Source: Amoebophrya sp. A120
Lineage: Eukaryota > Protista > Dinoflagellata
Direction: 5' to 3'
DNA length: 64,000 nt
NCBI GenBank assembly: GCA_905178155.1
Contig: CAJINV010000005.1
Location: forward strand, 5,126,256 to 5,190,255
In this document: piece by piece, positions 19,566 through 48,937 of the stretch
How the letters are laid out: every line of letters starts with the position of its first letter
Numbering within the stretch: the first letter of the stretch is position 1
Program-made: the position numbers and the translations under genes
Notes under the pieces: generated by a model
Databases searched by the model: none
What the model was told of the DNA's origin: nothing
Seen by the model: the letters and a program-made list of their open reading frames with translations, nothing else

Positions 19566-22500
19566 ATGAAGACCATGGATTTCGAGTCGCGGCGGCGCGC
19601 GTTCAAGCAGACGCAGGACTTGTATGACAGTGCACAACTTCCCCTCCCCCACTTTTGTATAGCATGAACGGCAACAGAAGCATCAGCAAGAATGCCGGTT
19701 TTGCATGACAAATTTACACTGGAGTGTAGTGCTGTTTGAGCTTCCAGAACTTGTCATGCGAACAGTGCTAAGAGGCAAAGCGTGAATTGGGTATTTTGCA
19801 TGACAAATGAGGGGGAGGGGGAGTTGTGCACTGTCATAACTTGAACGACGTGCGACGGAAGCGCGAAGACGAGGAAGTGCAGCTGCGGAAAACGGAAAAG
19901 GAGGTGCTCCTGCAGAAAAAGCGCCGGGATTGCCGCAGCGATGGTTGTAGTACACCAGCAGCTCCGGCGTCCACCTCGACTTCCTGTGCAGCTGCATCCT
20001 CTTCCACCACGGAAACAAGCATGGGTAGTACTTCTACCCACGGTAATTATAACAGCGCGGCAAGTAGGACAACCTCGAACAACAGTTGTGCCAGTGCTTC
20101 CAATTATACCGCACAGAAGATTTTAGGGCAGAGGAACACGCTGCTTTCGACAACCGACGAAGAGCACAGTTCGGGAGCGATGAATTCAAAAATGAGTCTG
20201 AATCTGAATGCGAGTGCAAGTGCACATCTTCAACTGCAGGCGACAGATCAACATGGTGCAGCTGTTGGCAATAATATTAACTCGCCTTGTGTGTTCCGTG
20301 ACCATCATGATCATGGCCCGCCAGAAGACTGCTCCCCATTACTGCATATGCACTGCAAGAGATATAATGTCTGGATTTGGAAGGTTGCAACTTGTCATGC
20401 TAAATCTGGATCGTGCCAAAAATATGTGTTGCATGAATTAATACCAAAAGATGTCCACTTTCGAACAAGTTCAGAGGCAGTTTGTCATGCAGGATAGGGA
20501 TGATAGAGGTTTCACAGAATCTGTCATGCTAGGTCCTACATGCCAGACCTCATGGGTCATGGAAAATCTGCGCCACAAGTCTTGCATTCTTCCAGACCTA
20601 GACATATTTGCAGTTTATACTGCAGTGGTTCGAGAACGCGACAACGGCACAGCTCTGCAAAATTATAACAGTTCACAACTCCCCCCTCCTCATTTGTGAT
20701 GCAAAATCCCAAGTCTAAACTTCGCCTCTTGGCACTGTTTGCATGACAAGTTCTGGCAGCCCAAACACCACTACAATCCTGTGAAAATTTGTCATGCAAA
20801 AGCTGCACTCTTGCAGGCCCGTCTATTGCTGTTCATGCAATACAAATGAGGGGGAGGGGGAGTTGTGCAGTCTCATAAAAATCGTGTTACAGGCAGACGA
20901 CAACGGCGAGATTGTTGAAGAAGGCGTAACATTGCCGCAGTTCGGCAACTACCCTAATTCCACCGGTAGTACAACTTCTGCGATCATGGGTACGATGAAG
21001 ACAGGAGATGCCGCTTCTTCAGGAACTGTAGTTCCTGAAATAAACAACAAGCTTGTTCTCACTGGCACCACGAAATCTGCATCCAGTTCGACGGGTGGAA
21101 GTACTACAACTGTGGCGCCCACGAGTGGTACATTCATCCGACATATCAACTGCAAATATGTAGTCTGGGTCTGGAAACTTGTGATGCTGAACTGTGGATG
21201 GCTGAAATATTTGCCAACGCAGCCAAGCATGACAAGTTTGCAGATCGCTTTCTCATGCTCAGTACGCATGGGAAACTGCGCTTTTGTATGACCAAAGAGG
21301 GCGTCTTTTTGTTTAGTCATGCAATACAGATTTTACAGGAATGTAGGACTGGCATGACAAGTTCCATGTTTCCAGACCCAGACATATTTGCATTGCATCC
21401 GACACCCACCTTCCAACCCGCACACGCCAATCAGCAAAACACGGGTGAAAGTCCTGCACGCGGTCACGGAGCTGCGGAAACGGCGTATCCTATGTAAAAA
21501 CATCCCCACACCATAGTCAAGGTGGGAAGTCTGCAACACAAATTCCCAAGTTTTGGGAGTTCTGCATGATAAGTTTCCATCTGCAGTGTAGTGCTGGCGA
21601 GCAAGGAAAGCCGCATAAGAAAGCCTAATTTCTGATCCTGTTTACAGCATTACAAATGGCAAAACACGATTGGAAATTTTGCCTCCCATGGAGATGCGCA
21701 TTACAGATGTTCCTGTCATTGTGCATCCGCATGACAACTCTGGGGTGGGGACGTTTTTACACAGGATACGGCTGTCGCGGCCGGAAAACCCCCCGATCCA
21801 GGAAATTTTGGACTACGGGCTGCAGGTTGCAGCGGCTGCAAGTAAGAGTAGTAGAAATGGAACAGGTGTAATATCGGGAACAACTACAACATGTGGAGAT
21901 CATACAGTGGGAAGCTGTACCTCCAATGGCAATAGAAATTGTCCTGAGCAAGGTCTTCAATATCATGGCAAGAATCACTGCATCAGGAAGATGGTGACGA
22001 TCATGCTGAATACCGACGATCACAAACTGAAATTCGAGCTGGCCTAGGCAGGAGAAGAACTGTGGTCTAGTCAGTGTAAGATGAACTCTCTTGGAGTGAC
22101 AGCATGACAAATTTGCTGTGCATGATAGAAAAAATCTGTGATGCATGGTTACTACGTGATGAAATTGCAATTGCATGTGAAAAGTAGCGGGCCTCATGGC
22201 AGCTGTCTCTGGCATGACAAGTATATGTTACTGTGTTGCTTTTTCTGCGTCACAGATGAATTTACACTTCTTTGCACAGTTTTTTTCTTGCATATAATCT
22301 GGACTTTGACCAACATCGCCAGCGGGAACTCCGAGCACACGAATGCTGTTGTTGAGTCGGGCGGTTTGGAGGCGTTTTTGCAGATCTTGAACAGCCGATC
22401 GGCGTTGCGCTCCGAGCTGTGTGAGCAGGCGATTTGGGCGTTGGGAAACATCGCGGGGGACGGCCCGGTGTTGCGGGACAAACTACTGGAGAGAAACGCC

Positions 22501-25500
22501 ATCAAAGTTCTCCAGAACATTTGCTCCGCTGTGACGCAATTGCAGTGGAATGACAAGGAGAAGACTGACGTGCTGCGAAACGTCATGTGGCTCATGAGCA
22601 ACCTGTGTCGGGGAAAGGTAGAATATCCTGAGTAAAAACGTATCCACACCAGAGTTGTAATGCAGATTTGCAAAGACAGGAAGACTTGTAATGCGCATCC
22701 CCACGAGAGCCATTTCCAGTCGTGTTTTGGAATTTGTGATGCTGTGAACAGGTTGAGCAGATGAATCTGTGATGCGGCTGCACTTGCTAACCTGCACTAC
22801 ACTGCAGAGTACAACTTGTCAAGCGTGACTCACAAAGCTCCTAGGTTTGTGTTGCAAAATCCCCATCCTGGCTCTGGTGTGGGTACGTTTTTACTCAGGA
22901 TATAGAAGGAAATAAATTCAATATGTTTTTTCAGATTTCATGATCAGCAGCCGCTGCGGCTGTGGTCTCTGTCTCATCTAACTAACTTTAAGTGTGCACA
23001 GCACCTCCATCACCACGCTTAGACTTCTGCAGCATAATTCCGGATTTATTATTTTTCACACGATAAAAAATCTTTATCTTCCTGAAGGCGATAGATGTAG
23101 AGCTTAAGTCAGTGCAGCCATCTCGTCGTCTTCACTGAACAGCTATCAAATGCAAAAATGTCTGGGTCTGGAAGAGTGCAAGTTTGTCATGCTTGTCTGG
23201 CATGACTCGAGAATCTGTGTTGCATAGCCACGAAAAGGCCCTCTTACCTGTCATGCAAAAACGCAGTTTGCCATGCGGAACACGTAAGATATGGCAGCCA
23301 AAAAATTTGTCATGCATAGCTGCGTATTGCAGTGCGTTTAGCATTCATTTTTAGCATTACAAATTTCCAGACCCAGACATATTTGCAATCCATAACAGCC
23401 GTCGCCACCGTTCGAAGTGGTGTGCCCGGCGTTCGAAGTGTTCGCAGAGGTGGTCGGGCGGAATTTATGGATAGGATGAAATTCATCTTGTATATGCCAA
23501 ATGCGGCATGGGCATGAGGAACGAAATTTGTGATGCCTGTGTTGCTGGATAAAAATGATGAAAGTTGTTCAGCAAGATAGAACTTGTTTACCTTGCGACT
23601 GGTTCATTTTTTTCCCATGCTTGTACAACATTTGGATGACAAGCATTTGGTTTTTCCCATTTCATATACACTCGACCACGACATGACGATTGACTCGATG
23701 TGGGGGCTGTCGTACCTGACGCAGAGCACGGGCGACGAACAAGAAGACGTGCGAAGGTGTGGGTGATTTTTTCTTGAATATGATTTGGCTTTTTGTTTTT
23801 GAAGAATTTTCTTTTGCGAAAGTCGAAACATGCATCTAGGATTTCGTCTGAGTTTGTCGTGCAAAATGCTCCAATTACCCCGATGAAATATTAAACATCG
23901 CTCATCAGAGCCTACGCCCTGCTCCTGTCCGGCCAGGCGCAGCGGGACTATCTGGAGGAACACCAGCCGAATCTGCTCATCCGGTGCCTCCTCAACATTG
24001 TCCGCTATGGCCGAATATCAAATGCAAAAATGTCTAGGTCTGGAAACTTGTGATGCTGAGTGGCGTAGCATGAGGAGGCCACGAGTGCTGGCTCAGCATG
24101 ACAAATTTCTGAGCTTGTAGATGTTACCTATTCTGCATGACAAACAGCGTCTCCGCATGACAGAAAAGCGCGGCTCTTGGGCAACGTGCGTGACAGATTT
24201 AAGAGTCATGCCAGAGAAGCATGACAAACATTCATTCTTCCAGACCCAGACATTTTTACAGTTGATACCGAAAAGCAGGCGGGGCCGCGGATACCGGGCC
24301 TGTTGTCAAGGACCTCACGTATGATCACGCAAGCAGTACGTGGAAAAACGAAGCCACACAAGCCGAGGACTTCTTGCTCACCCATCCCGCGCTGCGCGTC
24401 ATAGGTACTTACTGTAGAATTCATCTAGCTGCAGTGTGGTTTGTAATGTACTTCTTACTAGTGGGGGCGATGATAGTATCCTATCGTGTGAGCAGCTACA
24501 AGAACATCTTTTGCACATCTGCACCGTTGTAACTGCAGTGCGCTATCAACGAACTAGACGAATCATGATGTGGTCCACCAAGTTTTCAAATGTGAACACT
24601 CGGCGGCGGCCCAAGGAACTACAGTAAGTACTTACAACAGTCTTTTTCTTGATATTTATCAAAATTCTATTCCGCAGGCAACCTAATTCAAACACCGGAC
24701 CACCGATATGCCGACATCTGTATCCAGTCGGGGTTGCTTCCCGCATTGATATATGCATTGCAAATATCCCTGAATGTCTGGAAGGATGCAACTTGTGATG
24801 CTACATTTGGACTCCAAAAAAATTTGTGTTGCATGAGCAGCAAATGGAGTATAATTTTTGCTACGCGGAGACGAGGGCATTTGTCATGCGAAATAGGCAT
24901 CAAGAACCTGTCACAAAATCTGTGATGCTACGGCATGCATCACAGACATCATGGCTCATGCAGAACGTGCATGACAAGTCTCAGAATCTTCCCGACATCC
25001 AGGGATATTTGCAATCCATATGATAACTCTGCTGAAGAACTACGGCGGATATCGCAAGAAAAAAGTCTTACAGTTACACATTGTGCTGCAGGCCAAGCAA
25101 GACAGACAAGCTCTGTCATGCCGGATATGCATGGGAGCCTCGTTTCATAGCTGTTTTCCCGTACCACTACTAGGATTTCTGCATTACAAGTTTTCTCTCT
25201 CAACATGCCGAGAAATTTGTGTTGCTGATTTCACTACAAAGGTGTAAGTGTAACACTTTTTTCGTGGGATTGCGGAGGAGGTAGTACTCATAGAGGAGCT
25301 GCGCCCAGCCCCCCTGGAACCGCTACAAATCCACCATGTACAACAAACGGCCAACAAACCACAACACGAACAAATGGCGGTCCAGTTCTTGCAGGAGTTT
25401 CTTCGACGTCGGAGCAAAAAAACCTCCAAAACGGTTTTAGAAGTATTTCGACAGGGGCGGAGAATCTGAATCACGATCAACAGGCAACAATATTTAACCC

Positions 25501-28500
25501 GCAGCGGAACAAAGCGCGAGAGAAGCAACTTTTGAAGATCCAGAAAGAAGCCGTGTTATGCATTGCAAAAGTATCGTACTCGTATAAATGCAGATCTTGC
25601 ATAACAAATCTTGTTCCCAAGGCAAAGGCGCATTGCAAATTTTATTTTTCATGCTGAGGAAATTTGTGATGCATTTATACGAGTGCGATGCTTTTGCAAT
25701 TTATACGTGTGGGTGCTCAGCAATATTGCGGCCGGGTCGCCGCATCAAGTGAAATTGTTGGTCGAGCCTTTGTATCAAATGCAAAAATGTCTCGGTCTGG
25801 AACAAGGCAACTTGTCATGCTAAATCTGAATGATGTAAAAATTTGTGTTGCGTGATGACCAAAAGATGTCCACTTTTTATCTAATCGAGAGGCAGTTTCT
25901 CATGCAGGATAGGCATGATGGAACTCTCACAGAATCTGTCATGCTATGTCCTACATGCCAGACCTAATGGATCATGGAAAACCTGCATGACAACCCTGGC
26001 ACTTTTCCAGACCCAGACATATTTGCATTTGATACTTTGAAGATGCTCCCGCAGTTGTGTCGCTGCCGTTGTCCGGAGACGGGGAAAGTTTACATGCAGG
26101 ACGTTTTCGACGTGATCAAAGACGACTTCATTCTGCCGGGCTTGAAACCGAGGGTGCTCATGCAGGAAGCGGGCTACGTGTTCGCGAACGCGGTGTGTTC
26201 TGCCGCGGCGAATAACATCCTGGTTTGCATTCCCACCGACTACTCCGCTTTCAACCAGCAAAAGGAAGATCACAATTTTGATCATTTGCAAGAACCTCCT
26301 TTCAATGGTGCGGGAAGAAATAGCTGTAACTACAACATGTCCAACATTCATTCGGGCAGAACCTCTACAACAATAGAACCACAGGAGGTCGTCGTGCATC
26401 AAGGTCAACATCATCATCAAAACTTCCTTCCCGACAGGAGCACCACGACGACCTCTTCGACCTCGATGCTTGTTGTTTCCTCGCCGGTGGAAGTTGTAGA
26501 TGACTACAAACAGGGTAGAACTTCGACGACCTCAACCTCCTCGCTGTCCAGCACGAAAACCACGAGCAAGAGAGAGGTCCCGCTGATCGAAACGCTGATC
26601 TTCAAAAAGGACTGCTACCGACTGATCTCGCTGGTGCTGAAGGGCGAAATCAAAGCGAACCGCAGCACCGGGTCGGAGCGCCTGATTCAGGCTTGCTTGG
26701 ACGCGATTATCAAATGCAAAAATGTTTGGGTCTCAAGGTCGTGCTGCTTTTGCATGACACAGAAGGTCTGGCATGGAAGCTCTAGCATCACAGGTTTCGA
26801 GAAGCTTCCGCAATGCCGAATCCGCATGACAAATCCCCCACTGTGGTGACAGAAAGTGGGCAGCTTTTGCTGCCTATGCATGAGGGATTTTTCTGTGTTC
26901 TGAAATGCGCAGCACAAGTTTGTATTCTCCCAGACCCAGGCACATTTGCAATCCATAGCGATTATGGAGGGGCTGAAATGGGACGACTTGACAAGGCAGT
27001 TGGGGGAGGGCAAAGAAGATGAAATGAGCGCTGCAAAAATCACCGGGGGTAGAAACTACAAGTCCGTGAAGCAGATAATCGAGGAGAACGGTTTGATCGT
27101 ATCAAAATGAAAAATCCCCCCTTCCCATATGAAAATGAAAATCCGTGTTGCGGGATTTGTGTACACAAATCAGCTTTGTTCTGCAGTAGAGGAGTACAGG
27201 CAGATACAAAGCCTGGAGAGGGGCGCTTTCTGGAGGTGGCCGCTTCGCACCATGGCAGACGTCTGCCCTGTAGGCGCAATAGCGCCTAAAAATGCGGAAG
27301 GAGGCTCTGGCTTTGCTCTCTTGCAAGACAGAACCTAGCTGTGGCCGCAAATCTGCATGACAAATTTTCAGAAGGGTGCGCTTTCGATATGGGGAGGGGG
27401 TTTTTTTTCTCAGAATAGATCGAGTCCGTGCTTCATAACGTCACCGACAACACGAAGGAGGAATCGGAATCTTGCCGGAAAGCCACGGCTATCAACTGCA
27501 AATATGTTTGGGGCTCCTGGAAAGTTGGAACTTGTATATGCTCGTCTGACTTTCGTGTGAGATTTGTATTGCATGACCAACAACAAAAGTCGCAGCCTCG
27601 TCTCTGGTCAGACAAAAACGCAGTTTTCCATGCGGGCTGCGTATGAGAAAGCGTTCCGGACGATGAAACTTGTCATGCTTGGCTGCGTTCGGAAGTGTTT
27701 TCATCATTCACAATTCAGCATCACAAATCTCCGGACCCAGATGACATGTTTGCATGTGATAACTGCGATTCTTCAGCGGTGGTTCTCATCCGCCTCGGGC
27801 ATGAGCGATGGGTTATGCCTTGCAAAAGTACTTTCGCAGTCGTAGTAATCGCAGCCTTGCATTACAAATCTTCGCCCCAAGGTAGATCAGCACGACAAAT
27901 TCCATTTGTCGTGCTGAGCTAACTTGTGATGCAATTACTACTGCAGATGAAGCGCGATACTTTTGCACAGGATATGGGTTCGACGAGGAGGACAATTTTC
28001 TGCTTCAAGAAGATTTCGTACGACAATGCACAACTCCCCCTCCCCCTCATTTGTCATGCAAAATACCAAATCCACCCCTTTCTCTTAAGCATTGCTTGCA
28101 TGACAGATTCCGAAAGCTGAAACAGCACCAGAATCGGTCACTAATTTGTCATGCAAAAGCTGCACTTGTGTTGCTGCTTATGGCCTTCAAATGAGCGGGA
28201 GGGGGTGTTGTGCACTCTCATATTTCGAAAACGCCATTGCCAGCAGCTTGTTCGATACTGCCATGGGAACATCCAACAGAAGCATTGCTGCAGCTTCTTG
28301 TGAGGAACGAGTAGAAAACGACACGATCAAGATGACCGGGGGGATTTTTGGAGGTGGCTCATCAACATCTCACCCGCCTCCGATGGCGATGGCGACGGGG
28401 CAAGAAAATTTTGTCTTCGATTTTACCGAGGGACGGAGCACTACTGGGAACAATCCGGGAAGTTGTGGAGCGAATTTCAACAAAGCAGGACAACAAGTTC

Positions 28501-28565
28501 TTGTAAAAGACGACCCGTTTGCGCTTTCCCGGCAGCATTTCTCGTTCGGGAGCGGGACGACCTGA
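19566..28565 (+). CDS. KPNA: Importin subunit alpha (karyopherin alpha), ~1218 aa with low-complexity insertions; 19 introners and 3 GT-AG introns
   Basis: IBB domain (RRRAFK..VRRKREDEEVQLRK..LLQKKRR), RKRLSRPENPPIQE, FELAWTLTNIASG, EQAIWALGNIAGDG, WLMSNLCRGKPSPPF, WGLSYL, PALRVIGNL, KEAVWVLSNIAAG. GT-AG introns at 22618-23398, 23757-23908, 24405-24677. Spliced length 3657 nt. Confidence 0.92.
19623..19838. mobile_element. Introner family D (absent from paralog at ~34753)
   Basis: TATGACAGTGCACAAC...GTTGTGCACTGTCATA; DR ACTTG. Confidence 0.95.
20347..20619. mobile_element. Introner family A
   Basis: TIR; DR CTGCA. Confidence 0.88.
20664..20877. mobile_element. Introner family D
   Basis: TIR; DR AAAAT; opposite orientation to 19623. 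Confidence 0.88.
21144..21399. mobile_element. Introner family A
   Basis: TIR; DR CGACA. Confidence 0.88.
21486..21768. mobile_element. Introner family B
   Basis: TIR; DR CGGCG/CGGCT. Confidence 0.9.
22045..22294. mobile_element. Introner family H, degenerate
   Basis: TAGGCAGGAGAAGAACTGTG / CACAGTTTTTTTCTTGCATA; DR decayed (TGGCC/TAATC); joins FELA/WTLTN. Confidence 0.8.
22624..22902. mobile_element. Introner family B nested in a canonical intron
   Basis: TIR; DR TAGAA; 6 nt downstream of the GT donor. Confidence 0.92.
23144..23394. mobile_element. Introner family A inserted at the AG acceptor
   Basis: TIR; DR ACAGC. Confidence 0.92.
23466..23666. mobile_element. Highly degenerate introner
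   Basis: TATGGATAGG / CCCATTTCATA; removal plus 5 nt restores VVGRN(L/F)DHDMTIDSMWGLSY. Confidence 0.65.
24016..24267. mobile_element. Introner family A
   Basis: TIR; DR CCGAA. Confidence 0.9.
24752..25020. mobile_element. Introner family A variant
   Basis: TATGCATTGCAAATATCCCTG / CAGGGATATTTGCAATCCATA; DR TGATA. Confidence 0.9.
25050..25271. mobile_element. Introner family H
   Basis: TIR; DR GCGGA. Confidence 0.85.
25557..25705. mobile_element. Introner family C
   Basis: TIR; DR CGTGT; joins KEAV/WVLSN. Confidence 0.92.
25773..26034. mobile_element. Introner family A
   Basis: TIR; DR CTTTG. Confidence 0.9.
26708..26957. mobile_element. Introner family A
   Basis: TIR; DR GCGAT. Confidence 0.88.
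27100..27417. mobile_element. Introner family F
   Basis: TIR; DR GATCG. Confidence 0.88.
27490..27761. mobile_element. Introner family A
   Basis: TIR; DR ACGGC/ACTGC. Confidence 0.85.
27814..27974. mobile_element. Introner family C
   Basis: TIR; DR TGGGT. Confidence 0.85.
28019..28222. mobile_element. Introner family D
   Basis: TIR; DR TTTCG. Confidence 0.88.
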
Positions 28566-30077
28566 GAAAACTTTATTTATCCGACGACTAGCATCAGCGT
28601 TCAAGAAGCTAGATCTGGAATGTGAATGAGTTTCAATTTCTGCGAAAGGTGGAGGCTCTGGGTTTTATGTACTTTTTACCTCAATAAACTACAACGCGAT
28701 AATATTCGAAGAATGAAAAATTTTGCATTTCCAACATCCAGAGGACAAACAATGCCAATTAAGTTTAAGAATACTAAGTAGTAGCATGATGCGGCCGTCG
28801 TGGTGGCTTTGGCTTTTGCTCTTCCGAGAAAGGTTTTGCCGAAATAAACGAATCTTCGAGCGGGGCCACTGTATGCAGGCCACTGCTTATGGTCCACGTG
28901 CAGACTACTTAGTTCGTCATGCAGACTTGACCGCTGCATGCAGATCGATCATTGTACACATGCAGTCCTAAAAATTGACATCTTCTGTTTCAAACTAAAT
29001 CCTTTGTTTGCTTAGAAAGGAAATGAAACTCAAGAGAAGAAAAAGGAGAGTGCTTAGTAGGTGGATGAATCTCCTGCTCTGCACCATTTCTGCCCGGAAT
29101 CTGTCAGCGACTTTTCGCGACGACTAGAAATTTCAAGCTCGACGAGCAGGAAACGAACCGAAATTTTAGCATGACTTTACGCTTCTATAATCAGTTGAAG
29201 GAAGGTTTTATCGGGGAGGTCCCTTTCGTTCTAAAAAACGAAAAAAAGATTATGCTTTTACTTGTTGAAGAGTTCAAGAACATCGAAAGTTACGTCGAAG
29301 CATTTTGTAGGTCCTGCAGTACGTAGACGTAGTTCATCTTTGAACTTACGTGAATAGATGGTCCTCGTCTCCGACTTCTTCGTAGATCTAGATGGCATGG
29401 TTCACTCGGTAACTAGTCTAGACCGTGGCCGTGGGTTTTGTGTTATTTGTCTAGATCGTAGACATCGTCACCCAGTACCTCAAAGATGAAGTTCTCTCGT
29501 CCACTGTTGGCTCCGTGCATGGCCGCTCGTGTAGTTGTCCGGCAAGATTTCGTGGGAACATCCGATCAGGAAGGAAAGTCGAACTAGTACATCATCAACC
29601 AAGTTCGTCATCGTATGCCAAAAATCACCACAGATGAAGTGGTGATCTATTACTCAGTACTTCGTTTATGTCGTAAAAATCTTCCGCACTTCAAGAAAAT
29701 GAAAATCGTGCTGCCCGTCGTCGTCGTGATGAAAGACCCCGGCGGCGTATTTACTATTTCCAAGCTGTGGAATGTAGTTCTTCTTCTTTACGCCTCAAAT
29801 CAACAAGACCTACAACCAGTTGCAACCGTTTTTTTTTTGACATCTGACTTCCTTGAAAGAAGGGTGGAAGAATTGTTGTCTTCACGCTAAAAAGCTTATT
29901 AAGCTTTTCAACATCATCAAGATCAATTGCGATCGAGAGATCTGCACACTGAGTACTGTACTTACTTACCACATCAAGTGGGCGGGGTAGAAGTAAACAA
30001 GAAGAAGTGTAGACTCGAGCTCGTACAACTACCAATCGCCTTGTTGTGCTGGAAGATTGTACAACGACAGCAAGAAA

Positions 30078-33000
30078 ATGAAACTCGCCAACAAGAATAT
30101 GAAAGCTACCTTCTTCCTCGCCGTGGCTCCGTTTGGCGAGAAGTCGGGGACGAAGATGATGATGCAGATCGTTTCCGCCGTGGAGCAGGGTAAGAAGAAG
30201 AACACTAATGGTCCGGGTCGTGCTGGTAAAAAAGCTGCTGTGCCGGTCGTCGCGCCCGGAGGAGCTTCTGGCGGCCGTGGCGCGACCACGACTATGGCGT
30301 TCTCACCTGTTACATTCTCAACTGTTACATGGGTTTATGATGCAAGAATGGCAAAAGTCAAAGCAGGGAGGTTGCAGCTGTAGCATTACAAATTCCGCAC
30401 AGATTTAGGCGCTGTTTAGCCTTTCCAAAATTTGTCATGCGAAGACGCTTCACCTTGTGAGTGTTGATGTTCGTTTTGCATTGCAAATCATGTAACAGTT
30501 GAGAATGTAACAGTTGAGAACGCCATAACGACGCACCTGTGGGTCGGGAGCGAGTTGGCCGGGACTGCCCAGTACGAGAGTTGGAAAAGCATCGGTGACT
30601 AGTAGAAATTTTTGCATTTATAAAAAATAGTACAACAAAAATCAAATATGCTTGTTGCTCACCAGCAAAAAAAATTTCTACGTAAGATTCGTTATGCGGA
30701 TCTGACCTGGAGGAAAGAGGAAGATTTCGATTTGTCATGCATAAATAGCAGTACGAATACGACTACGAGTGTGCGATACTTTTTCACAGGATACAAAGGG
30801 ATTCCTGCAGGTCGACCGTGCGACTGCGGCGGAGATGAAGCGGGTTGGCGATGACGACGACGACGACAACCCGACGGAGAAGGTAGCACCTAATTCATTC
30901 CCAACCTAGCCATCGCATTTTTCGAGACACCAAATTGAAATTCTAAGCATCACAAATAGGACTAGGTCGCGCAGACCAGCGCGAACAGCGTGAGGGCCGG
31001 AATGGGTCAACCACCTCTGTGGCCTCATTTTTGTTCTCCCATGGCCAGCGGCCCCTGCCTACAAAAATGGTCTACGCCGTGGGATTGCAGGAACGAGGCA
31101 TGCAGGCTACACAACCTGGTAAAGAAGTCGAAGATGGCGCGCGCGCATGCTAGAGAAGCATGCGCGGCTTACTGCTCACCTCTTTTTTATGTTCACACAC
31201 TACAAAGGCACATCCTGACGTCTATGACGCGAATATGTAGAATCTAGCGGGCTCGCAGCCCCTCTCTCCGGCGACGTGGTGGCCGAGCAAGCTATGTGAG
31301 GGCACACGCCTCCCGTAGCGAGCCGTTACGCTAGCGACCTCTGCTGGGGAGGGTCCGGGGGGATTTGTTGCAGCCTGTGTTGCGTCCGGCGCTGTTACCT
31401 CTCGGCGCAGTGCTGGAGCACGGTTCGACCCACGTCTGTGGGCGCAGAGTGCGACGTCCCGCAGCCACCTCTGTGGCGCGGGCGTTGCGGTGCGGTCCCT
31501 GTTGCGCGCCCCGCGACTGTATGTAGCTGTACATAGGACGCTGCGACGAAGCAGCGCGGGTACACTTTTATACAGAAGCCTTGTCCGCCACTGAGAAGGG
31601 TGCGGCCCTTTGTTGTTGAGAACATAGATACGGACTAGAGCTACGACCCCATGCGCCCGCAGAGCTGCGGGGATTTGGGAAGGAGTTTGCGTTCGCCTCA
31701 GTATGATAACCAAAATGCTACCCAAATCACATCAACATGAATCAGGTACCAACAGGGCGGAAGCGGGTTGGCGATGACGACGACGACGACAACCCGACGG
31801 AGACGAGGGGAGCCGTTGCATATGAAATATCAAATGGAAATATGTCTTGGTCTGGAAGGTCGCAACTTGTCATGCTGTTTTTGGATTCTAAAAAAATTAG
31901 TATTGCATGACCAGCAAGAAAGGTCCAGTTTGTGCTACGCGGAGAGGGCATTTCTCATGCGGAAAGCGCATCAGGAAGCCCTCTAAAAGTCTGTGGTGCT
32001 AGGTCATGCATTACAGGCATCAGGGGTCATGAGAAATATGCGTGACAAGTCTTGCATTGTTCCAGACCCAGACATATTTGCATTTGATATGAACCCAAAG
32101 CCGTGACGGACTGGGCGCAGGAGTGTGAGGAATTGAATGCGGAGTGGAAAGAACAAGCGGGACAATGTCCTCCTGATACCGCGTCAAAAGTAGTACTCGC
32201 ACACATGATCGAGAAGGACTGTCCTCATGTGAGTCCCGACGTCAACAAGTGGCCGAAAATGCTTGGCCTCGAAAAAACCGACGCGACCGAAAAATGTTAC
32301 CGCCTTCTCGAAGGTTACTCTCAGTTCTCGACTCTCATCCGCGGCGTCTTCAATATGGGACTCTCAAACGTTACACTCTCAAGTGTTTGATACATGACTT
32401 GTCATGCAAAGTTAGATGTGCCATAGATAATGATAACCCTAACCCTAAGCCGCCAGACGATCTTCAAGCTGCTTCGCATGACAAATTCTCGAAGGGCTAA
32501 ACAGCGTCTAAATCTGTGTCAAATGATGTGCGTCGCGAGAGCTGCAAGCATGTCCCTTAATATCTCACTGGTGCCTGCACCTGCTGTTGTTGCGTGACGA
32601 AAACAAATGGATCGAACAGTTGGGACTGTAACGTTTGAGAGCTCTTGTCCCATACTCTAAGGCGGCATGTTGTTGAGCGCAGATACTTATGCATTGCAAA
32701 AGTATCGCACTCGTATAAATGCATTACAAATTTCCTCAGCATGAGAATTTGCAATGCTGATTTACCTGAAGCTGAAGAAAAAGACTTGTAATGCATGATT
32801 GCAATACGAGCGCGATACTTTTGCACAGGATAATACCAAGCTCATCCGCAACGTGACCGGCGACTCCGCCCCTTCCCCGGATCTGAGCGCTTGGGACGCT
32901 ATCGCGAAACACAAATCGGTGATCGACATGATCGAGGCCAAGAAAGAAATGTACCAGCTGTACATCGACCACTGGAAATTATGCCGTGTAAAAACATTTA

Positions 33001-33424
33001 AGTTTAACATTGCCACCCCAGAGTTGTCATACACGTCTGCAAGCCTCAGAGTCAGACGTTTCTCATGCGCAACCCCATGAGGAGCACTCTGTAATGCTGT
33101 CTGGCAGTTTGTCATGCTAGAATCAGGATCATGCCGCTACAATTATGTTGGCTAAAAAACGCGAGTTGTACACTCTGAGCCCAAAATTGTCATGCGCGAC
33201 AGCCAAAAGATGCTAGTTTATGTAGTAAAGTCACCATGATCTTGAGGACTATGGGGTGGGGACGTTTTTGCTCAGGATAGAAATGCGCGGAGCTGGGAAA
33301 CGGCTGGCCGAAGGCCGAGGACTTTGTGGAAGACATCAATTTTCCCAGCAGCGAAATCGGCCAGGCCTGGGAAAAATACGTTGCCGATGCCGTGGCGGGT
33401 CTCGACAATTATTTTACCAACTAA
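30078..33424 (+). CDS. Hypothetical protein (~340 aa), 6 introners plus one 863-nt GT-AG intron
   Basis: Frame restored across 30293, ~30600, 30883-31745 (GT-AG), 31828, 32354, 32688 and 32980 to TAA 33422-33424. Start and the ~30600 junction are uncertain. Confidence 0.6.
30293..30527. mobile_element. Introner family G
   Basis: TATGGCGTTCTCA...TGAGAACGCCATA; DR ACGAC. Confidence 0.92.
30600..30793. mobile_element. Degenerate family C introner
   Basis: Right TIR CGATACTTTTTCACAGGATA intact, left end decayed; left boundary inferred from frame. Confidence 0.5.
31828..32089. mobile_element. Introner family A
   Basis: TIR; DR TGAAA/TGAAC. Confidence 0.9.
32354..32654. mobile_element. Introner family G
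   Basis: TIR; DR decayed (TTCAA/CTCTA); frame restored. Confidence 0.8.
32688..32832. mobile_element. Introner family C
   Basis: TIR; DR ATACT/ATACC. Confidence 0.9.
32980..33279. mobile_element. Introner family B
   Basis: TIR; DR GAAAT. Confidence 0.88.
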
Positions 33425-33960
33425 ACATGTTGTTGAACTTAAACTTATTTACTTTTTTCGCTTCAGAATCAATCTTTCTCGCGATCTATTCCACCTCCGG
33501 TTTCAAGAGTACACTTTTTTTGTTTTTGTTTACAGCTGCACATGTTGTTTCAATTTAATATTTCATTTCATACATGTATGTCAATCACCAGTTGGGTATT
33601 ACTCATTTATTCATTCACTCGTCCACATGACAGCGATGCCTTTTGGTATTTATTGGGAAAACGAAAAGAATCTTACTCATCCACCATAATCCGCAAGATA
33701 GAAGCACAAGAACCTGACAACTCCAAAAATGTAAATGTTAGTGCCTGTAGCTGTGCCGACGTACTTTCTTGCGACGGAGAGGGAGAGCTAGTACTTAGCA
33801 GTGTAAGAACTGCAACTGCCGTCAGCTTTCTCTCTCCTGTCGCAGCAGATTAAAGTGCTGTCCAGCCGTTGTACTAACAGAGTCGCGTATGTTGATACTG
33901 CAGTGGTTCTTTTTACAATTCACAGATCAAAGCTGCGTCTTCCCGCTCCAGCAGGAGAAC

Positions 33961-35489
33961 AACAATAACGGCACACCAGTTACAAGAAGTTATTCGAACT
34001 TTTATCGCATATAATTGCCGCTTGAGGATCGTCTTGTTTCAGGCAGGAATCTTGTCCCGCGGAGCTGTGGTGGTTCACGCGTACATTCTTTCCACACGAA
34101 AAATTGTTCCACATTCATCTTTCCACATCTTGGTTCGATGGCGCTTTCCGCCTTTCAATCACTGTGCTGTAGATCATTATGTTGCTCCTGTCACGGAGGC
34201 GGAATAGCAAGAAGTCCTCGGGATCTTCTATGAAAAAAACGAAAAGTTTTCACCTCCCGTCGCTCTTGCTGCTGGATCTTCCCTGCGATAGTACTGATCG
34301 AAGCATATTAGAGTTCTTGTTGAAATGAATTCTTTGGTTAGAAATACCGCTTGATGCTGTTGTGCTTTTCGTTTCTGATTGGATTTTTTGGATCATACAC
34401 TAATAGCGTTTACTGATAGGTTACCTGTTTTCTGTAGTCGAAGAAAGAACTTGATAAGGGCAGTTCCTTCTCCTGCGGGCGCCGGTTTTGCGTAGCCTTC
34501 GTTTCGAGGTGGATTGCGCAAGAAGTGCTGGAAGCATTCACCCTCGTCATATGTTTTCCATGATGGCAGTTCGTGGTTAGTATGAAAATGTGTACAACGG
34601 TCATGAGCCATAGATAATAAATAGCATCGATCGTGGTCCAGCATGAGCAATTAGAAGTGCGTTGAGTATACAAATTACCTTCGGCAAGTAGATGTAAAAG
34701 ATGAAGACCATGGATTTCGAGTCGCGGCGGCGCGCGTTCAAGCAGACGCAGGATTTGAACGACGTGCGACGAAAGCGTGAAGACGAGGAAGTGCAGCTGC
34801 GGAAAACGGAAAAGGAGGTCCTGCTGCAGAAAAAGCGCCGGGATTGCCGCAGCGATGGTTGTAGTACTGCACCAGCAGCTCCGGCGTCCACCTCGACTTC
34901 CGCTGCAGCATCCGCTTCCTCTTCCACCACGGAAAGCATGGGTAGTACTTCTACCCACGGTAATTATAACAGCGCGGCAAGTAGGACAACCTCTAACAAC
35001 AGTTGTGCCAGTGCTACCAACTACACGGCTCAGAAGATTTTAGGGCAGAGGAACACGCTGCTTTCGACAACCGACGAAGAGCATAGCTCGGGAGCGATGA
35101 ATTCAAAAATGAGTCTGAATCTGAATGCAAGTGCAAGTACGCATCTTCAACTGCAGTCGACAGATCAACATGGTGCAGCTGTTGGCAATAATATTAACTC
35201 GCCTTGTGTGTTCCGTGACCATCATGATCATGGCCCGCCAGAAGACTGCTCCCCATTACTGCATATACACTGCAAGAGATATAATGTCTGGATTTGGAAG
35301 GTTGCAACTTGTCATGCTAAATCTGGATCGTGCCAAAAATATGTGTTGCATGATTACCAAAAGATGTCCACTTTCGGACAAGTTCAGAGGCAGTTTGTCA
35401 TGCAGGATAAGTAGGGATGATAGCGGTTTCACAGAATCTGCCATGCTAGGTCCTACATGCCAGACCTCATGGGTCATGGAAAATCTGCA
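33961..35489 (+). repeat. Diverged segmental duplicate of 18074-20571 with a ~750-bp deletion
   Basis: Colinear homology to the GT gene 3' end, the intergenic region and the importin 5' end; 18275-19024 is missing. Confidence 0.9.
34701..35489 (+). pseudogene. Truncated importin alpha paralog (IBB domain only)
   Basis: MKTMDFESRRRAFKQTQDLNDVRRKRED..., broken inside its copy of the 20347 introner (35264-35489); unspliced ORF runs to 35414. Confidence 0.85.
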
Positions 35490-36160
35490 TGGAATAAAGT
35501 GTCCAGCCGTTGTACTAACAGAGTCGCGTATGTTGATACGACTCGGGATTTTGATGTGCTACTTGTGCAAGGACGCGGGCAAAATTTCGCCCCGGATTTT
35601 TGAACATCTTGAAGATTTGGATGGTTGGGTAAGACCAAAAAAAAATTTCTTCCTCGGAGGACGACCTCTTGCATTTCTCAAGGAGGATGCAAGTGGCACG
35701 GTGAAAAATGTCGATTTTCAGAAATTTTTCTGTTGTTCACAGTTTGTCGTGCTTCCTGTGTATTGTTTCACAGACGGTTCAATTAGTTTTAGTGTTACAA
35801 CTACCGTGTACTTACCTTGTACTTTTTTTTGTTTTTCTACTCTGGCAGCTGAGGACGCGCTAGTAGTAAGTTCTCTCGCAGGTGCACCTCCTTGTTTTTC
35901 GACGGTCGTGCGAAATTTCTCTCACTTCGGTACAGGTTTCTATTTTAAGAAGCGCACACGTCATTCTATCTTTCTGCGCCCTCCCGTCGTTTTATGATTT
36001 ATTAATACAAATTTGTCACATCGATAGATTTTTGCTACGAGGTTTTTTCTTCATCTTCACCCAAGTTAGAAGACTACTGTCGTTTTGATTCTGTAATAGT
36101 GCAACTGCAACAAATAGTACGTAGGTAAATTTTCTGAATCAGCAACAGCAACGACACGAG

Positions 36161-38621
36161 ATGTTCACCTCTAGAACCCTGATCTCAGGTTCCGAAGACG
36201 CAGGGCCTCTGCTCGGCCCAACAAGTACGATGTTGTCCGACAGTCCTCCATTGAGACCGGGTTCAAACGATCCAGACCCGGATCCTCTTCTACGTGAAGA
36301 TTTTCCTTGCACCAGACCAACAGCACATGGGGCTCCCGAAGCCGCAAATGCGAAAAATGCAAAAAGGAAGAACACCAGCACGAGCACTAGCAGCTTGGGA
36401 GCGGCTACTACTGGAGGTTCTTCTTCCTACAGCGGCCCAAGTAGGACATTGTCGTCTTCAACATCGTCGACTGGTGCGGGGTTGAGCAATGATAACAAAC
36501 ACCAGCGCATTATCAAATGCAAATAAGTCTGGGTCTGGAAACTTGTGATGCTGAATTGTGGATGACTGAAATACTTCCCAATGCAGCTAAGCATGACAAG
36601 TTTCCCGCACACTTTTGCATGCGCATTCCGCATGAAAAACTGCGCTTTTGTATGACAAAAGGAGGTATCTTCTTGCTAGTCATGCAACACAGATTTTACA
36701 GGAGTGCAGGACTAGCATTACAAGTTCCATGCTTTCAGACCCAGACATATTTGCAATGCATACGCATTCTGAATTACCCGCTCACGCCGGAAGTTGGCCC
36801 AAGGGAAGTTGTGCTCCTAGAAGCTCCACCGATCGAGAAATTCGACGTAGCAACAAGACCCGACGGAGAAACGGGCGTGCTGGAACATGATAGGGAACAG
36901 CATCACGCCGGTATAATATCTTCAAACCAGGGCGGAGGAGGAGGAGGAGCATATCAGCATAATGGAAATGAGGGTCTTGTGGCAGGACCACGAGGAGCAT
37001 CTTCTTCAAGAACACATGAGCTGCGGAAGAATACTTCTAGTACGACGAGCATAAAAGATCTGTACAACGTCGTTCCAGCATCATCTGTGAATGATGATAA
37101 GCCCCAACAGACGATGAAAACTCGCAAGCCGCGACATTCCTGGAGCGTGCACAACTATGACCCGCTCAGGTGTCAACTTACAGGCTACGTAAACGTTTAC
37201 AATAGATGAACATGCAAGTCTGTGATGCAAAAGGTGATGCAAAAGGTAGCCTACTTGTACTCCTGCAGAAGTGCGCATGACAAGTTCTGGAGTTGTCCCA
37301 AACGACCGCACTAGAATCGTGCGAAATTTGATTGTATTGCAGAAAGTGGAACGTTGTGCGAGTCTGTCATGCTCGTCATCATGCAATACAAAACGCAGAC
37401 TCTATTGGAACGCTTGAGATTGTAGTAACGTTTGAGCAGGTCATAACAACCTCCGGGATTTTCTTGCTGACGAGGAAGAAGTGGACTCGGATTCCTACAC
37501 CCGCATTTATGGCCTGCTCAAGTTGTGTTACAATCTGTGATGCAAAAGGTGCATGATCCATCATCCTCTTCTCACAGGAGAGTGCATCACAAGTTCGGGA
37601 CGAGTACTTCTTACCAAACCGCACTAGAATCATCCGGCTAAATTTGTATTGCAAAAAGCGGAACTACACGGCTCTGTGTGTCTCTTATGCTGATCAAGCA
37701 ACACAAAATCCAGACACAGATTCTGTGTACTGTAACCACGTCTGAGATTTTTGTAATAGCTGAGCAGGTTATAGCATTCCCACCGCGTTTTTCTCTACTT
37801 CGTTGACATCGGAAGATGACGACCATAACAAATTCGACGATATTAGTCTTTTTCGCAGCTACGCTGCCGAGGACCCTCACGCGGCACTCTCCCCCTCTAG
37901 CCGAACAGGACATCATAACCCGGCCTCCTCAAGTAGCAGGCAGCAGCGCATGGCTATCCTATGTAAAAACGTCCCCAACCCATAGTCAAGATGGGGAATC
38001 GGCTACACAAATCTACAAGTTTTGGCTGCTTTGCATGACAAATTTGGATTCGTAGTGTCGTGCTGTTTGAGCTAGCTCAGCAGCGTCACAGATCTAGTAC
38101 ATCAGGCTGATTGAAGCATGACAGATTCCAAAACACGCCTAAACAATGCCTCTCATGGGGCTCCGCATGAGAAACAGTTTCAGCATGCAGATTTGCAATA
38201 CAAATACAACTATGGGGTGGGGACGTTTTTCAATACGATAATGGCCATGGCCTCCTTGCTCCTGGACCGGTGGCGTTTCGAGGTTCTATGACAATGCACA
38301 ACTCCCCCTCGTCCCCCTCATTTGTCATGCAAAATACCAATTATACATCCCTTTCCCTTAAGCACTGCTTGCATGACAGGCTCCGGAAGCTGAAACAGCA
38401 CTAGAATCGGTCGCTGATTTGTCATGCAAAAGCTGGATTTATGCCAGCACTTGTGTTGCTGCTTATGCACTTCAAATGAGGGGGGGGGTTGTGGACTCTC
38501 ATAGGTTCCGTACGGCACGTACAAACGCATCGCACTGTTTCTCGCCATTGAGTCAGAGATTGAACCAGAGTGCGGCGACTTTTGTTTTTGCATTTGCAAA
38601 CAGGACGTCGAGAGCTCATAA
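36161..38621 (+). CDS. Truncated paralog (~374 aa) of the 49365 gene, array copy 1
   Basis: Frame intact after removing 5 introners; jumps at ~38547 into sequence homologous to 55226-55320 and stops at TAA. Confidence 0.6.
36511..36762. mobile_element. Introner family A (also at +3147n; absent from paralog at ~50327)
   Basis: TIR; DR CGCAT. Confidence 0.93.
37156..37445. mobile_element. Introner family I (also at +3147n)
   Basis: TATGACCCGCTCA / TGAGCAGGTCATA; DR ACAAC. Confidence 0.88.
37508..37773. mobile_element. Introner family I (also at +3147n)
   Basis: TATGGCCTGCTCA / TGAGCAGGTTATA; DR GCATT. Confidence 0.88.
37955..38240. mobile_element. Introner family B (also at +3147n)
   Basis: TIR; DR ATGGC. 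Confidence 0.9.
38287..38503. mobile_element. Introner family D (also at +3147n)
   Basis: TIR; DR GGTTC. Confidence 0.9.
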
Positions 38622-39307
38622 TTAGCCGCAGCTTTCGTGTGGATACAAATAGAATAAAGTGTCCAGCCGTTGTACTAACAGAGTCGCGTATGTTTAATAT
38701 ACGACTCGGGATTTTGATGTGCTACTTGTGCAAGGACGCGGGCAAAATTTCGCCCCGGATTTTCGAACATTCATTTTGAAGATTTGGATGGTTGAGTAAG
38801 ACCAAAAAAAGATTCCTTCCTCGGAGGACGACCTGTTGCATTTCTCAAGGAGGATGCAAGTGGCACGGTGAAAAATGTCGATTTTCAGAAATTTTTCTGT
38901 TGTTCACAGTTTGTCGTGCTTCCTGTGTATTGTTTCACAGACGGATTACGGTGTATTTACCTTGTTGCACTTTTTTTGTTTTTCTACTCTGGCAGCTGAG
39001 GACGCGCTAGTAGTAAGTTCTCTCGCAGGTGCACCTCCTTGTTTTTCGACGGTCGTGCGAAATTTCTCTCACTTCGGTACAGGTTTCTATTTTAAGAAGC
39101 GCACACGTCATTCTATCTTTCTGCGCCCTCCCGTCGTTTTATGATTTATTAATACAAATTTGTCACATCGATAGATTTTTGCTACGAGGTTTTTTCTTCA
39201 TCTTCACCCAAGTTAGAAGACTACTGTCGTTTTGATTCTGTAAAAGTGCAACTGCAACAAATAGTACGTAGGTAAATTTTCTGAATCAGCAACAGCAACG
39301 ACACGAG

Positions 39308-41768
39308 ATGTTCACCTCTAGAACCCTGATCTCAGGTTCCGAAGACGCAGGGCCTCTGCTCGGCCCAACAAGTACGATGTTGTCCGACAGTCCTCCATTG
39401 AGACCGGGTTCAAACGATCCAGACCCGGATCCTCTTCTACGTGAAGATTTTCCTTGCACCAGACCAACAGCACATGGGGCTCCCGAAGCCGCAAATGCGA
39501 AAAATGCAAAAAGGAAGAACACCAGCACGAGCACTAGCAGCTTGGGAGCGGCTACTACTGGAGGTTCTTCTTCCTACAGCGGCCCAAGTAGGACATTGTC
39601 GTCTTCAACATCGTCGACTGGTGCGGGGTTGAGCAATGATAACAAACACCAGCGCATTATCAAATGCAAATAAGTCTGGGTCTGGAAACTTGTGATGCTG
39701 AATTGTGGATGACTGAAATACTTCCCAATGCAGCTAAGCATGACAAGTTTCCCGCACACTTTTGCATGCGCATTCCGCATGAAAAACTGCGCTTTTGTAT
39801 GACAAAAGGAGGTATCTTCTTGCTAGTCATGCAACACAGATTTTACAGGAGTGCAGGACTAGCATTACAAGTTCCATGCTTTCAGACCCAGACATATTTG
39901 CAATGCATACGCATTCTGAATTACCCGCTCACGCCGGAAGTTGGCCCAAGGGAAGTTGTGCTCCTAGAAGCTCCACCGATCGAGAAATTCGACGTAGCAA
40001 CAAGACCCGACGGAGAAACGGGCGTGCTGGAACATGATAGGGAACAGCATCACGCCGGTATAATATCTTCAAACCAGGGCGGAGGAGGAGGAGGAGCATA
40101 TCAGCATAATGGAAATGAGGGTCTTGTGGCAGGACCACGAGGAGCATCTTCTTCAAGAACACATGAGCTGCGGAAGAATACTTCTAGTACGACGAGCATA
40201 AAAGATCTGTACAACGTCGTTCCAGCATCATCTGTGAATGATGATAAGCCCCAACAGACGATGAAAACTCGCAAGCCGCGACATTCCTGGAGCGTGCACA
40301 ACTATGACCCGCTCAGGTGTCAACTTACAGGCTACGTAAACGTTTACAATAGATGAACATGCAAGTCTGTGATGCAAAAGGTGATGCAAAAGGTAGCCTA
40401 CTTGTACTCCTGCAGAAGTGCGCATGACAAGTTCTGGAGTTGTCCCAAACGACCGCACTAGAATCGTGCGAAATTTGATTGTATTGCAGAAAGTGGAACG
40501 TTGTGCGAGTCTGTCATGCTCGTCATCATGCAATACAAAACGCAGACTCTATTGGAACGCTTGAGATTGTAGTAACGTTTGAGCAGGTCATAACAACCTC
40601 CGGGATTTTCTTGCTGACGAGGAAGAAGTGGACTCGGATTCCTACACCCGCATTTATGGCCTGCTCAAGTTGTGTTACAATCTGTGATGCAAAAGGTGCA
40701 TGATCCATCATCCTCTTCTCACAGGAGAGTGCATCACAAGTTCGGGACGAGTACTTCTTACCAAACCGCACTAGAATCATCCGGCTAAATTTGTATTGCA
40801 AAAAGCGGAACTACACGGCTCTGTGTGTCTCTTATGCTGATCAAGCAACACAAAATCCAGACACAGATTCTGTGTACTGTAACCACGTCTGAGATTTTTG
40901 TAATAGCTGAGCAGGTTATAGCATTCCCACCGCGTTTTTCTCTACTTCGTTGACATCGGAAGATGACGACCATAACAAATTCGACGATATTAGTCTTTTT
41001 CGCAGCTACGCTGCCGAGGACCCTCACGCGGCACTCTCCCCCTCTAGCCGAACAGGACATCATAACCCGGCCTCCTCAAGTAGCAGGCAGCAGCGCATGG
41101 CTATCCTATGTAAAAACGTCCCCAACCCATAGTCAAGATGGGGAATCGGCTACACAAATCTACAAGTTTTGGCTGCTTTGCATGACAAATTTGGATTCGT
41201 AGTGTCGTGCTGTTTGAGCTAGCTCAGCAGCGTCACAGATCTAGTACATCAGGCTGATTGAAGCATGACAGATTCCAAAACACGCCTAAACAATGCCTCT
41301 CATGGGGCTCCGCATGAGAAACAGTTTCAGCATGCAGATTTGCAATACAAATACAACTATGGGGTGGGGACGTTTTTCAATACGATAATGGCCATGGCCT
41401 CCTTGCTCCTGGACCGGTGGCGTTTCGAGGTTCTATGACAATGCACAACTCCCCCTCGTCCCCCTCATTTGTCATGCAAAATACCAATTATACATCCCTT
41501 TCCCTTAAGCACTGCTTGCATGACAGGCTCCGGAAGCTGAAACAGCACTAGAATCGGTCGCTGATTTGTCATGCAAAAGCTGGATTTATGCCAGCACTTG
41601 TGTTGCTGCTTATGCACTTCAAATGAGGGGGGGGGTTGTGGACTCTCATAGGTTCCGTACGGCACGTACAAACGCATCGCACTGTTTCTCGCCATTGAGT
41701 CAGAGATTGAACCAGAGTGCGGCGACTTTTGTTTTTGCATTTGCAAACAGGACGTCGAGAGCTCATAA
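39308..41768 (+). CDS. Truncated paralog, array copy 2
   Basis: Matches 36161-38621 at offset 3147. Confidence 0.55.
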
Positions 41769-42454
41769 TTAGCCGCAGCTTTCGTGTGGATACAAATAGA
41801 ATAAAGTGTCCAGCCGTTGTACTAACAGAGTCGCGTATGTTTAATATACGACTCGGGATTTTGATGTGCTACTTGTGCAAGGACGCGGGCAAAATTTCGC
41901 CCCGGATTTTCGAACATTCATTTTGAAGATTTGGATGGTTGAGTAAGACCAAAAAAAGATTCCTTCCTCGGAGGACGACCTGTTGCATTTCTCAAGGAGG
42001 ATGCAAGTGGCACGGTGAAAAATGTCGATTTTCAGAAATTTTTCTGTTGTTCACAGTTTGTCGTGCTTCCTGTGTATTGTTTCACAGACGGATTACGGTG
42101 TATTTACCTTGTTGCACTTTTTTTGTTTTTCTACTCTGGCAGCTGAGGACGCGCTAGTAGTAAGTTCTCTCGCAGGTGCACCTCCTTGTTTTTCGACGGT
42201 CGTGCGAAATTTCTCTCACTTCGGTACAGGTTTCTATTTTAAGAAGCGCACACGTCATTCTATCTTTCTGCGCCCTCCCGTCGTTTTATGATTTATTAAT
42301 ACAAATTTGTCACATCGATAGATTTTTGCTACGAGGTTTTTTCTTCATCTTCACCCAAGTTAGAAGACTACTGTCGTTTTGATTCTGTAAAAGTGCAACT
42401 GCAACAAATAGTACGTAGGTAAATTTTCTGAATCAGCAACAGCAACGACACGAG

Positions 42455-48748: not shown

Positions 48749-48937
48749 ATGTTCACCTCTAGAACCCTGATCTCAGGTTCCGAAGACGCAGGGCCTCTGC
48801 TCGGCCCAACAAGTACGATGTTGTCCGACAGTCCTCCATTGAGACCGGGTTCAAACGATCCAGACCCGGATCCTCTTCTACGTGAAGATTTTCCTTGCAC
48901 CAGACCAACAGCACATGGGGCTCCCGAAGCCGTGTAG
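48749..48937 (+). pseudogene. 5' fragment of the array gene (partial fifth unit)
   Basis: MFTSRTLISG..APEA, then breakpoint at ~48932. Confidence 0.75.

Follow-up and report, generated by a model that had tools for sequence, protein, structure and literature searches.

The introners of Amoebophrya A120 are the closest described relatives of the elements analysed here. They carry inverted repeats made up of TAT, seven variable bases and an A run, have direct repeats of 3-5 nt and are removed at non-canonical junctions (PMC7789003); the nine predominant A120 junction classes (Table S4, Farhat et al.) all begin N-T (PMC7789003). The published view is one of 1,954 introner families with variable splice sites and with diverse or unknown transposons as their source (PMC7789003; PMC12130899). 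Farhat et al. report finding no transposase in A120 and argue against transposase mobilisation, and both the mobility and the splicing of the introners are stated there as open questions (PMC7789003). One family, A120 family 38 (~808 bp), is Ginger-like with integrase homology and is listed as TIR DNA with a 5-bp TSD and TA/TA termini; the authors describe it as being without Ginger termini and TSDs (PMC12130899). The parts of this literature drawn on here describe neither an internal motif nor a rule for its spacing, nor a cut register that is fixed (PMC7789003; PMC12130899).

Subterminal motifs are likewise already known as a kind of signal. In the portions of the literature considered, the hAT subterminal repeats (CG/AATTCAT in Herves; also Ac, Tol2 and Tag1) and those of the Emigrant MITE share with the present elements a short multi-copy motif at both ends near the terminal repeat, for which cooperative binding is proposed, and the transposase is reported to bind the repeated subterminal motifs of Herves (PMC3143072) and Emigrant (PMC1636448). 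Euglenid nonconventional and Fritillaria non-canonical introns resemble the introns discussed here in being transposon-derived, in having a terminal stem that joins the ends and in having conserved bases at fixed offsets from the cut; they differ in their end signals (CAG/CTG; AG-AC), and a phased internal motif is not mentioned in the part of the source considered (PMC11282704).

The window, i.e. the whole 64,000-nt stretch of DNA analysed, contains an importin-alpha-like gene that carries the family-1 element 24016-24267. The features of this locus are as follows.

19811-29193, plus strand: host region, importin-alpha-like gene with IBB and Arm domains and ~20 introns; ends approximate
24011-24015, plus strand: left 5-bp target duplication CCGAA
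24015-24271, plus strand: inferred intron of the 24016 element, 257 nt as set by RNA; the -1/+4 register is inferred from decayed copies
24016-24267, unstranded: introner element of family 1, 252 bp, TAT...ATA termini, absent from transcript contigs
24016-24045, plus strand: left terminal inverted repeat, ~30 bp
24048-24056, minus strand: motif site 1, GCATCACAA, outward-pointing, its centre 37 bp from the left element end
24096-24104, plus strand: motif site 2, GCATGACAA, 48 bp from site 1, with which it forms the facing pair named in the sequence-only reading
24135-24143, plus strand: motif site 3, GCATGACAA
24155-24163, plus strand: motif site 4, GCATGACAG
24188-24196, plus strand: motif site 5, GCGTGACAG, 33 bp beyond site 4
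24219-24227, plus strand: motif site 6, GCATGACAA, 31 bp beyond site 5, outward-pointing, its centre 45 bp from the right end
24238-24267, minus strand: right terminal inverted repeat
24268-24272, plus strand: right 5-bp target duplication CCGAA

The sequence-only reading had noticed several motif copies on both strands of this element, and six sites were indeed found, one on the minus and five on the plus strand, spaced 48, 39, 20, 33 and 31 bp apart. Other elements of the window to which we refer are listed below.

19623-19838, unstranded: family-5 element, with an empty paralogous site near 34752
21486-21768, unstranded: family-3 element with six sites, all on the plus strand, and no facing pair
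22045-22294, unstranded: old element, TAG...ATA, duplication decayed; spliced, start offsets -1 to +1 permitted
23466-23666, unstranded: old decayed element, target duplication gone; its RNA junction 23464 to 23671 is unambiguous and fixes -1/+4
25557-25705, unstranded: family-2 element, 149 bp, spliced
25773-26034, unstranded: element with the terminal repeat type of 24016 and a reversed motif array, spliced out of the same transcript as 24016
27490-27761, unstranded: element whose duplication has one mismatch; spliced, start offsets -2 to 0 permitted
36511-36762, unstranded: second family-1 copy, also named in the sequence-only reading, with an empty paralogous site (single CGCAT) at 50327

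The elements are 109-350 bp long, with inverted repeats that start with TAT and end with ATA and with 5-bp duplications without sequence preference; an exact 5-bp direct repeat was present in 420 of 566 elements, and one of 7-8 bp in three. They are non-coding, high-copy TIR insertions, for which empty paralogous sites were found at 50327 and near 34752. By their terminal inverted repeats, fixed-length duplication, empty sites and lack of coding capacity they fit MITEs, or non-autonomous TIR DNA transposons, and by their TAT-start repeats, direct repeats at the borders and non-GT-AG junctions they match the published A120 introners, whose family lengths in the material considered (~107, 149, 208-214, 234, 256-278 and 305-322 nt) match those of the families here (PMC12130899 supplement 8). 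The host is likely a parasitic dinoflagellate. At the related locus L067, Rpb1 is divergent; its best match stands at 86%, and its best named matches, mostly alveolates, at 62-64%. Flanks were coding-like in 445 of 518 profile-detected copies from the window and the loci described below and clearly non-coding in five, so the insertions lie almost all in exons. Two complete elements (22624-22902 and 23144-23394) were seen within a GT-AG intron, 22618-23398. Short insertions, often of 3 nt, are abundant in paralog alignments and old copies, and disrupt old terminal repeats.

A larger sample was obtained by a pattern scan that gave 143 partly overlapping loci (765 kb) from one related public assembly sharing the families. 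The caller, which on random sequence made one false call in 100 kb, returned 594 elements, and 554 elements in 68 clusters, a sample enriched for the query family, were kept after removing those with a score below 16 or a length above 400 and tandem copies. With a caller that admitted TAT/ATA ends with at most one mismatch, the terminal bases were T 0.98, A 1.00 and T 0.98, followed by A at 0.83-0.91 at positions 11-13; the full A run is absent in families 5, 7, 10 and 13. The arms of the terminal repeats agree within copies above shuffled expectation (8971 vs 8812 +/- 26), a rough control, as the caller selects on this agreement.

By sequence, about nine unrelated types of terminal repeat can be told apart, with little in common beyond TAT. 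The sequence-only reading had spoken of otherwise unrelated families, which is true of the terminal repeats and does not extend to the spacers, since families that differ in their terminal repeats have homologous spacers (families 3/5/10/13/9 and 6/7). The spacer TGTAGTGC-GTTT with a degenerate site GCACTACA, for example, was seen under different terminal repeats in families 3, 5, 9, 10 and 13 (e.g. 19623-19838 and 21486-21768), which on sequence comparison suggests that interior segments may have been swapped. Element lengths are multimodal and not smoothly distributed, as had been anticipated; the peaks are family sizes, with medians of 112-322 that rise in irregular steps, and the proposed ladder of ~50-nt modules was rejected. 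In the smallest family, family 11 (109 bp), an element comprises two repeats and a pair of same-direction sites at a distance of 32 bp.

The window contains 166 matches to the strict motif GCATNACAA, where chance would give 3.5; the tandem repeat at 35489-48932 inflates the count. With the extra tandem copies removed, 140 strict matches lie in 18.5 kb of element DNA and two in the 35.2 kb outside, no excess over the 1.1 expected, and the suggested rarity of the motif outside elements was thus borne out. At least one strict match was present in 67 of 71 delimited window elements, and the stretches of RNA-verified GT-AG introns that were checked contained none. The motif core is GCA(T/A)NACA(A/G), nine bases, within the relaxed profile (T/A)GCA(T/A)NACA(A/G)(A/G)Y. 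Two or more sites were found in 541 of 554 elements, and the motif occurs in all 15 families of at least five copies, whose counts are not independent because the families share ancestry. Elements with different TIRs, of about nine types, therefore do share the motif, as first supposed. In all 15 families identity to the consensus was higher in motif columns (0.82-0.99) than in the rest of the interior (0.70-0.88), and over the 554 copies from the window and the related assembly the conservation of the motif is close to that of the terminal repeats. Searches of viral contigs gave no match to the terminal-repeat pattern or the three-site pattern and one to the two-site pattern, taken as chance; prokaryotic genomes gave no matches.

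As assembled, the tandem repeat consists of about four copies, 99% alike, of a 3.15-kb unit with five elements in each, and an older diverged copy of the unit lies at 50327-52299. The 5' region of the importin-alpha gene, with its IBB domain, is partly duplicated (89-95%) at 34154-35488; the duplicate is without the 19623 insertion and is truncated within an element at the tandem boundary. A 49-bp near-perfect palindrome with 22-bp arms, without motif or TAT ends, was noted at 63566-63614.

The sites follow a spacing code. Facing pairs, found at 46-49 bp and 33-34 bp with a few at 16-18 bp, had been proposed to form the modules; they are outnumbered by same-direction pairs, of which there are 652 at 30-34 bp against 251 and 120 facing pairs, and the direct pair 31-33 bp apart is the main module. 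Among cluster representatives, 71 of 168 adjacent spacings fell at 15-17, 31-33 or 46-49 bp, bins picked after inspection of the data; randomly placed sites gave 25 +/- 4.6. Spacings of 16-18 bp are minor, and the idea of a continuous 16-bp lattice was dropped. The distance between the element end and the outermost outward site is 36-38, 44-48 or 56-59 bp (~37, 47, 57) and is phased at 10.5 bp (p <= 0.0002; Rayleigh R was 0.81 when 21 family ends were used and 0.85 with 11 repeat-type values). From the three-turn spacing of 31-33 bp and the one-turn steps at the ends, we infer proteins placed on one face of duplex DNA.

We consider it reasonably likely that the motif is a double-stranded DNA binding site of a single trans-acting transposase, or of its DNA-binding partner, which would mobilise all families. 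Enrichment, conservation within each family, helical phasing and strand symmetry, all properties of the sequence, favour a duplex binding site, and this is the part of the earlier proposal that we retain, in which a trans factor shared by the families would bind the motif as transposases bind subterminal sites. Protomers would bind the phased sites along one face of the helix and so put a catalytic unit on the terminal TAT, and staggered insertion with a 5-bp duplication would follow; after insertion the motif array would be largely dispensable. TAT being all that the ends have in common, the internal array and not the terminal repeat would confer specificity.

No such enzyme was found in the sequences searched: Pfam gave no transposase in 233 of 370 long open frames plus one exon, there was no integrase family match in 234 frames, and no autonomous copy was found in ~0.8 Mb (window and loci), including 14 long elements inspected. 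The long elements are nested copies or carriers of unrelated inserts. One of them, a family-10 element of 1,003 bp at 60925-61927, has intact left sites and ~750 bp of unrelated GC-rich DNA in its middle; long forms resembling it were seen at L067:11017-11988, L017:505-1608 and L023:632-1465. Compared by description, A120 family 38 may be the best published candidate for a relative of the mobiliser. Ginger and other integrase-like elements have TGT...ACA termini, whereas the elements here end TAT...ATA.

Target duplications of hAT elements are typically 8 bp, compared to 5 bp here. The present elements also differ from hAT elements in having one motif across at least nine unrelated terminal-repeat sequences and strict helical phasing. 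The arrangement of the sites and their constraint along lineages fit a hAT-like subterminal system. A 523-bp TAT...ATA element at L013:1612-2134, nested in a family-1 element, has a different terminal repeat and an 8-bp duplication, CAAATGCC, and possibly belongs to a second, hAT-like system. No motif site was found in it, and this single case would tie the motif to the 5-bp system.

The timing of selection bears on whether the motif works during transposition or in place. On internal tree branches the motif core changed in 129 of 15248 cases (0.85%) and the interior spacers in 2127 of 54450 (3.9%), i.e. 4.6-fold fewer changes in the motif, whereas on terminal branches the values were about 3.4-3.6% and 7.8%, with 544 motif changes against 1177 expected from the interior (46%). 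The two terminal bases freed after insertion served as post-insertion neutral clock (17/689; 2.5%, 95% interval 1.4-3.9), and the terminal-branch core rate of 3.6% was not different from it (p 0.14). The duplications mismatch at 113 of 1995 positions (5.7%), which suggests a faster clock than that of the terminal bases; duplication mismatch is a poor proxy for copy age. The branch rates fit selection on the motif during the copying of elements, followed by near-neutral decay once a copy is inserted.

It is possible that some constraint also acts on the motif in place. The sites might then be occupied by a protein of the host, DNA-binding or chromatin-associated, that works on the inserted element, e.g. 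by marking it or by recruiting excision machinery during transcription, and transposition would use that factor or another. Strand symmetry and helical phasing suit any double-stranded binder. The core G and C changed by only 2.1% on terminal branches, strong sites persist in relic elements, and in copies with at least two duplication mismatches, motif deviation rose less (60/1381, 4.3%) than interior deviation (230/2339, 9.8%). Against this stand the core rate, which is not under that of the neutral clock, a constraint twice as strong on internal branches, and the chance level of the motif outside elements; with motif-blind detection, moreover, the most diverged copies had lost many sites (458 of 1077 mismatches, a figure inflated by misregistration). 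A comparison of paralogs (7/179 vs 48/816, p 0.37) was underpowered. We regard the in-place host protein as unlikely overall. The lack of a transposase in the sequences searched and in the report of Farhat et al., the terminal-branch change at only 46% of expectation, the faster clock suggested by the duplications and the in-place conservation in relics nevertheless count against the transposase-site reading.

The motif could also be a relic of common descent and local duplication, with families pieced together from a few ancestral segments and a motif that is read by no factor. The spacer homology across terminal-repeat types agrees with such a history, but the 4.6-fold deficit of changes relative to adjacent spacers on internal branches largely refutes it, and spacing and end phase are retained where spacer sequences are unrelated; we hold this explanation to be very unlikely.

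A role in RNA had been the other half of the earlier proposal, as hairpin modules, a shared multibranch fold or the site of an excision factor. In the stems cited for it (24047-24104 and 36543-36599) G faces G, unpaired, at the centre of the motif, and the extension of the stems past the motif is not conserved. Of 27 family-1 copies with the transcription direction of 24016, 26 have the cited stem broken at its centre; covariation in the stem is 0.089 against 0.094 when shuffled, and RNAalifold kept eight pairs, none of them (0/8) compensatory. Among 251 facing pairs, 76 agree in their centre base, against 78 after shuffling, and pairing is at background just past the motif profile. The sites share one orientation in 71 of 541 elements, and some families are without any facing pair. 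The 24016 RNA folds well (z -4.9), by its terminal stem, with site 1 pairing with site 3 and not with site 2; the 48-bp facing-pair helix was predicted in 7 of 30 cases and the terminal stem in 71 of 71. Hairpin modules and a shared multibranch fold are thus not upheld.

Strand preference was equally absent. Gene direction was assigned for 407 of the 554 copies (336 of 341 agree within loci), and no family among these showed an orientation bias; family 3 was 15:13, and family 11, which has no sense site in one orientation, was still 5:3. Site totals were 937 sense and 1012 antisense, and on terminal branches sense and antisense sites changed equally (231/6594, 3.5%, vs 255/7028, 3.6%; p 0.71), as did the putative branch A (44/942 vs 43/1005), which speaks against the excision-factor site in RNA. 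Rfam gave no match in 20000-38600. A function of the motif in RNA, whether as fold, branch point or site of an excision RNA-binding protein, is likewise very unlikely, even though TNAC in the motif resembles the U-n-A-y branch-point core, facing pairs are able to pair (137 of 317 sites were predicted to pair with some motif with probability >0.5), outward sites at both ends would put a sense site near the 3' end either way in most families, and the 3'-most sense sites changed slightly less (69/2358 vs 162/4236).

With the motif read as a transposition site, removal from RNA would be a distinct process, carried out through the stem of the terminal repeats and strand-specific end bases with a fixed -1/+4 cut. 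The contigs used were those of runs X1 and X3, one sample, taken as RNA by guess; raw reads of runs X8 and X9 cover repeat ends only. The transcript-like contigs skip 12 listed elements in the importin-alpha-like gene, each as the element plus 5 nt and with non-GT-AG junctions; at 24016-24267 they jump from 24010 to 24268, leaving out 257 nt. The junction 23464 to 23671 permits one register only, with the cuts one base ahead of TAT and four bases past ATA; the junctions 22043 to 22299 and 27487 to 27765 are compatible with it, so that the -1/+4 register stands on one unambiguous and two compatible junctions. The corresponding introns at these decayed copies are 23465-23670, 22044-22298 and 27489-27765, where the register is kept without a direct repeat. 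The introns would read N-U-A...A-U-A-N-N-N-N, and the N-T start of all nine published A120 junction classes is what a -1 cut predicts.

At the 5' end of the transcript T1 and A2 showed no change on terminal branches (0/344 each) and T3 showed nine in 344; at the 3' end the last A changed in 8 of 345 cases, the preceding T in 2 of 344 and the A in 1 of 344. This constraint is strand-specific (variant counts, p 6e-6), and the same test finds none at the motif. Splicing would depend on the strand-specific terminal bases (5' UA, 3' AU) and not on the motif, and the end constraint together with the fixed cut points to a splice signal at the element ends. The constrained 3' A, at -7 from the 3' cut, is a possible branch nucleotide, and donor +2 U and +3 A agree with canonical donors. 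Every RNA-verified element kept at least three sites, so splicing of a site-less element was not observed. RNA reads or contigs were also seen to fuse element ends to other flanks at 23144, 24267 and 25557, meaning either that some copies elsewhere are unspliced in RNA or that the runs contain DNA.

A wider picture, which we offer as a conjecture and consider possible though rather doubtful, is that a single system underlies the introner families of Amoebophrya, which number hundreds to thousands. A single protein, possibly integrase-like or host-domesticated, would ignore the terminal-repeat sequence and read the helically phased internal code and the TAT end. Any self-complementary sequence would then do as terminal repeat. 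In RNA the repeats would form the stem from which a ruler independent of U1 sets its cuts, one base ahead of the stem and four past it, undoing the 5-bp duplication exactly, and the DNA-bound protein may also pass the element to the splicing machinery.

The literature searched, including supplement text, yielded no mention of the shared motif, its spacing code or the fixed cut register; published figures could show the motif or the register. A motif and spacing code common to all families would merge them into one mobilisation system. The motif provides a bait for the missing protein and a query for autonomous copies, and family 11, with 109 bp and two sites, a minimal substrate. The fixed -1/+4 cut and the strand-specific end bases define a candidate splice signal, which would correct intron annotation in these genomes.
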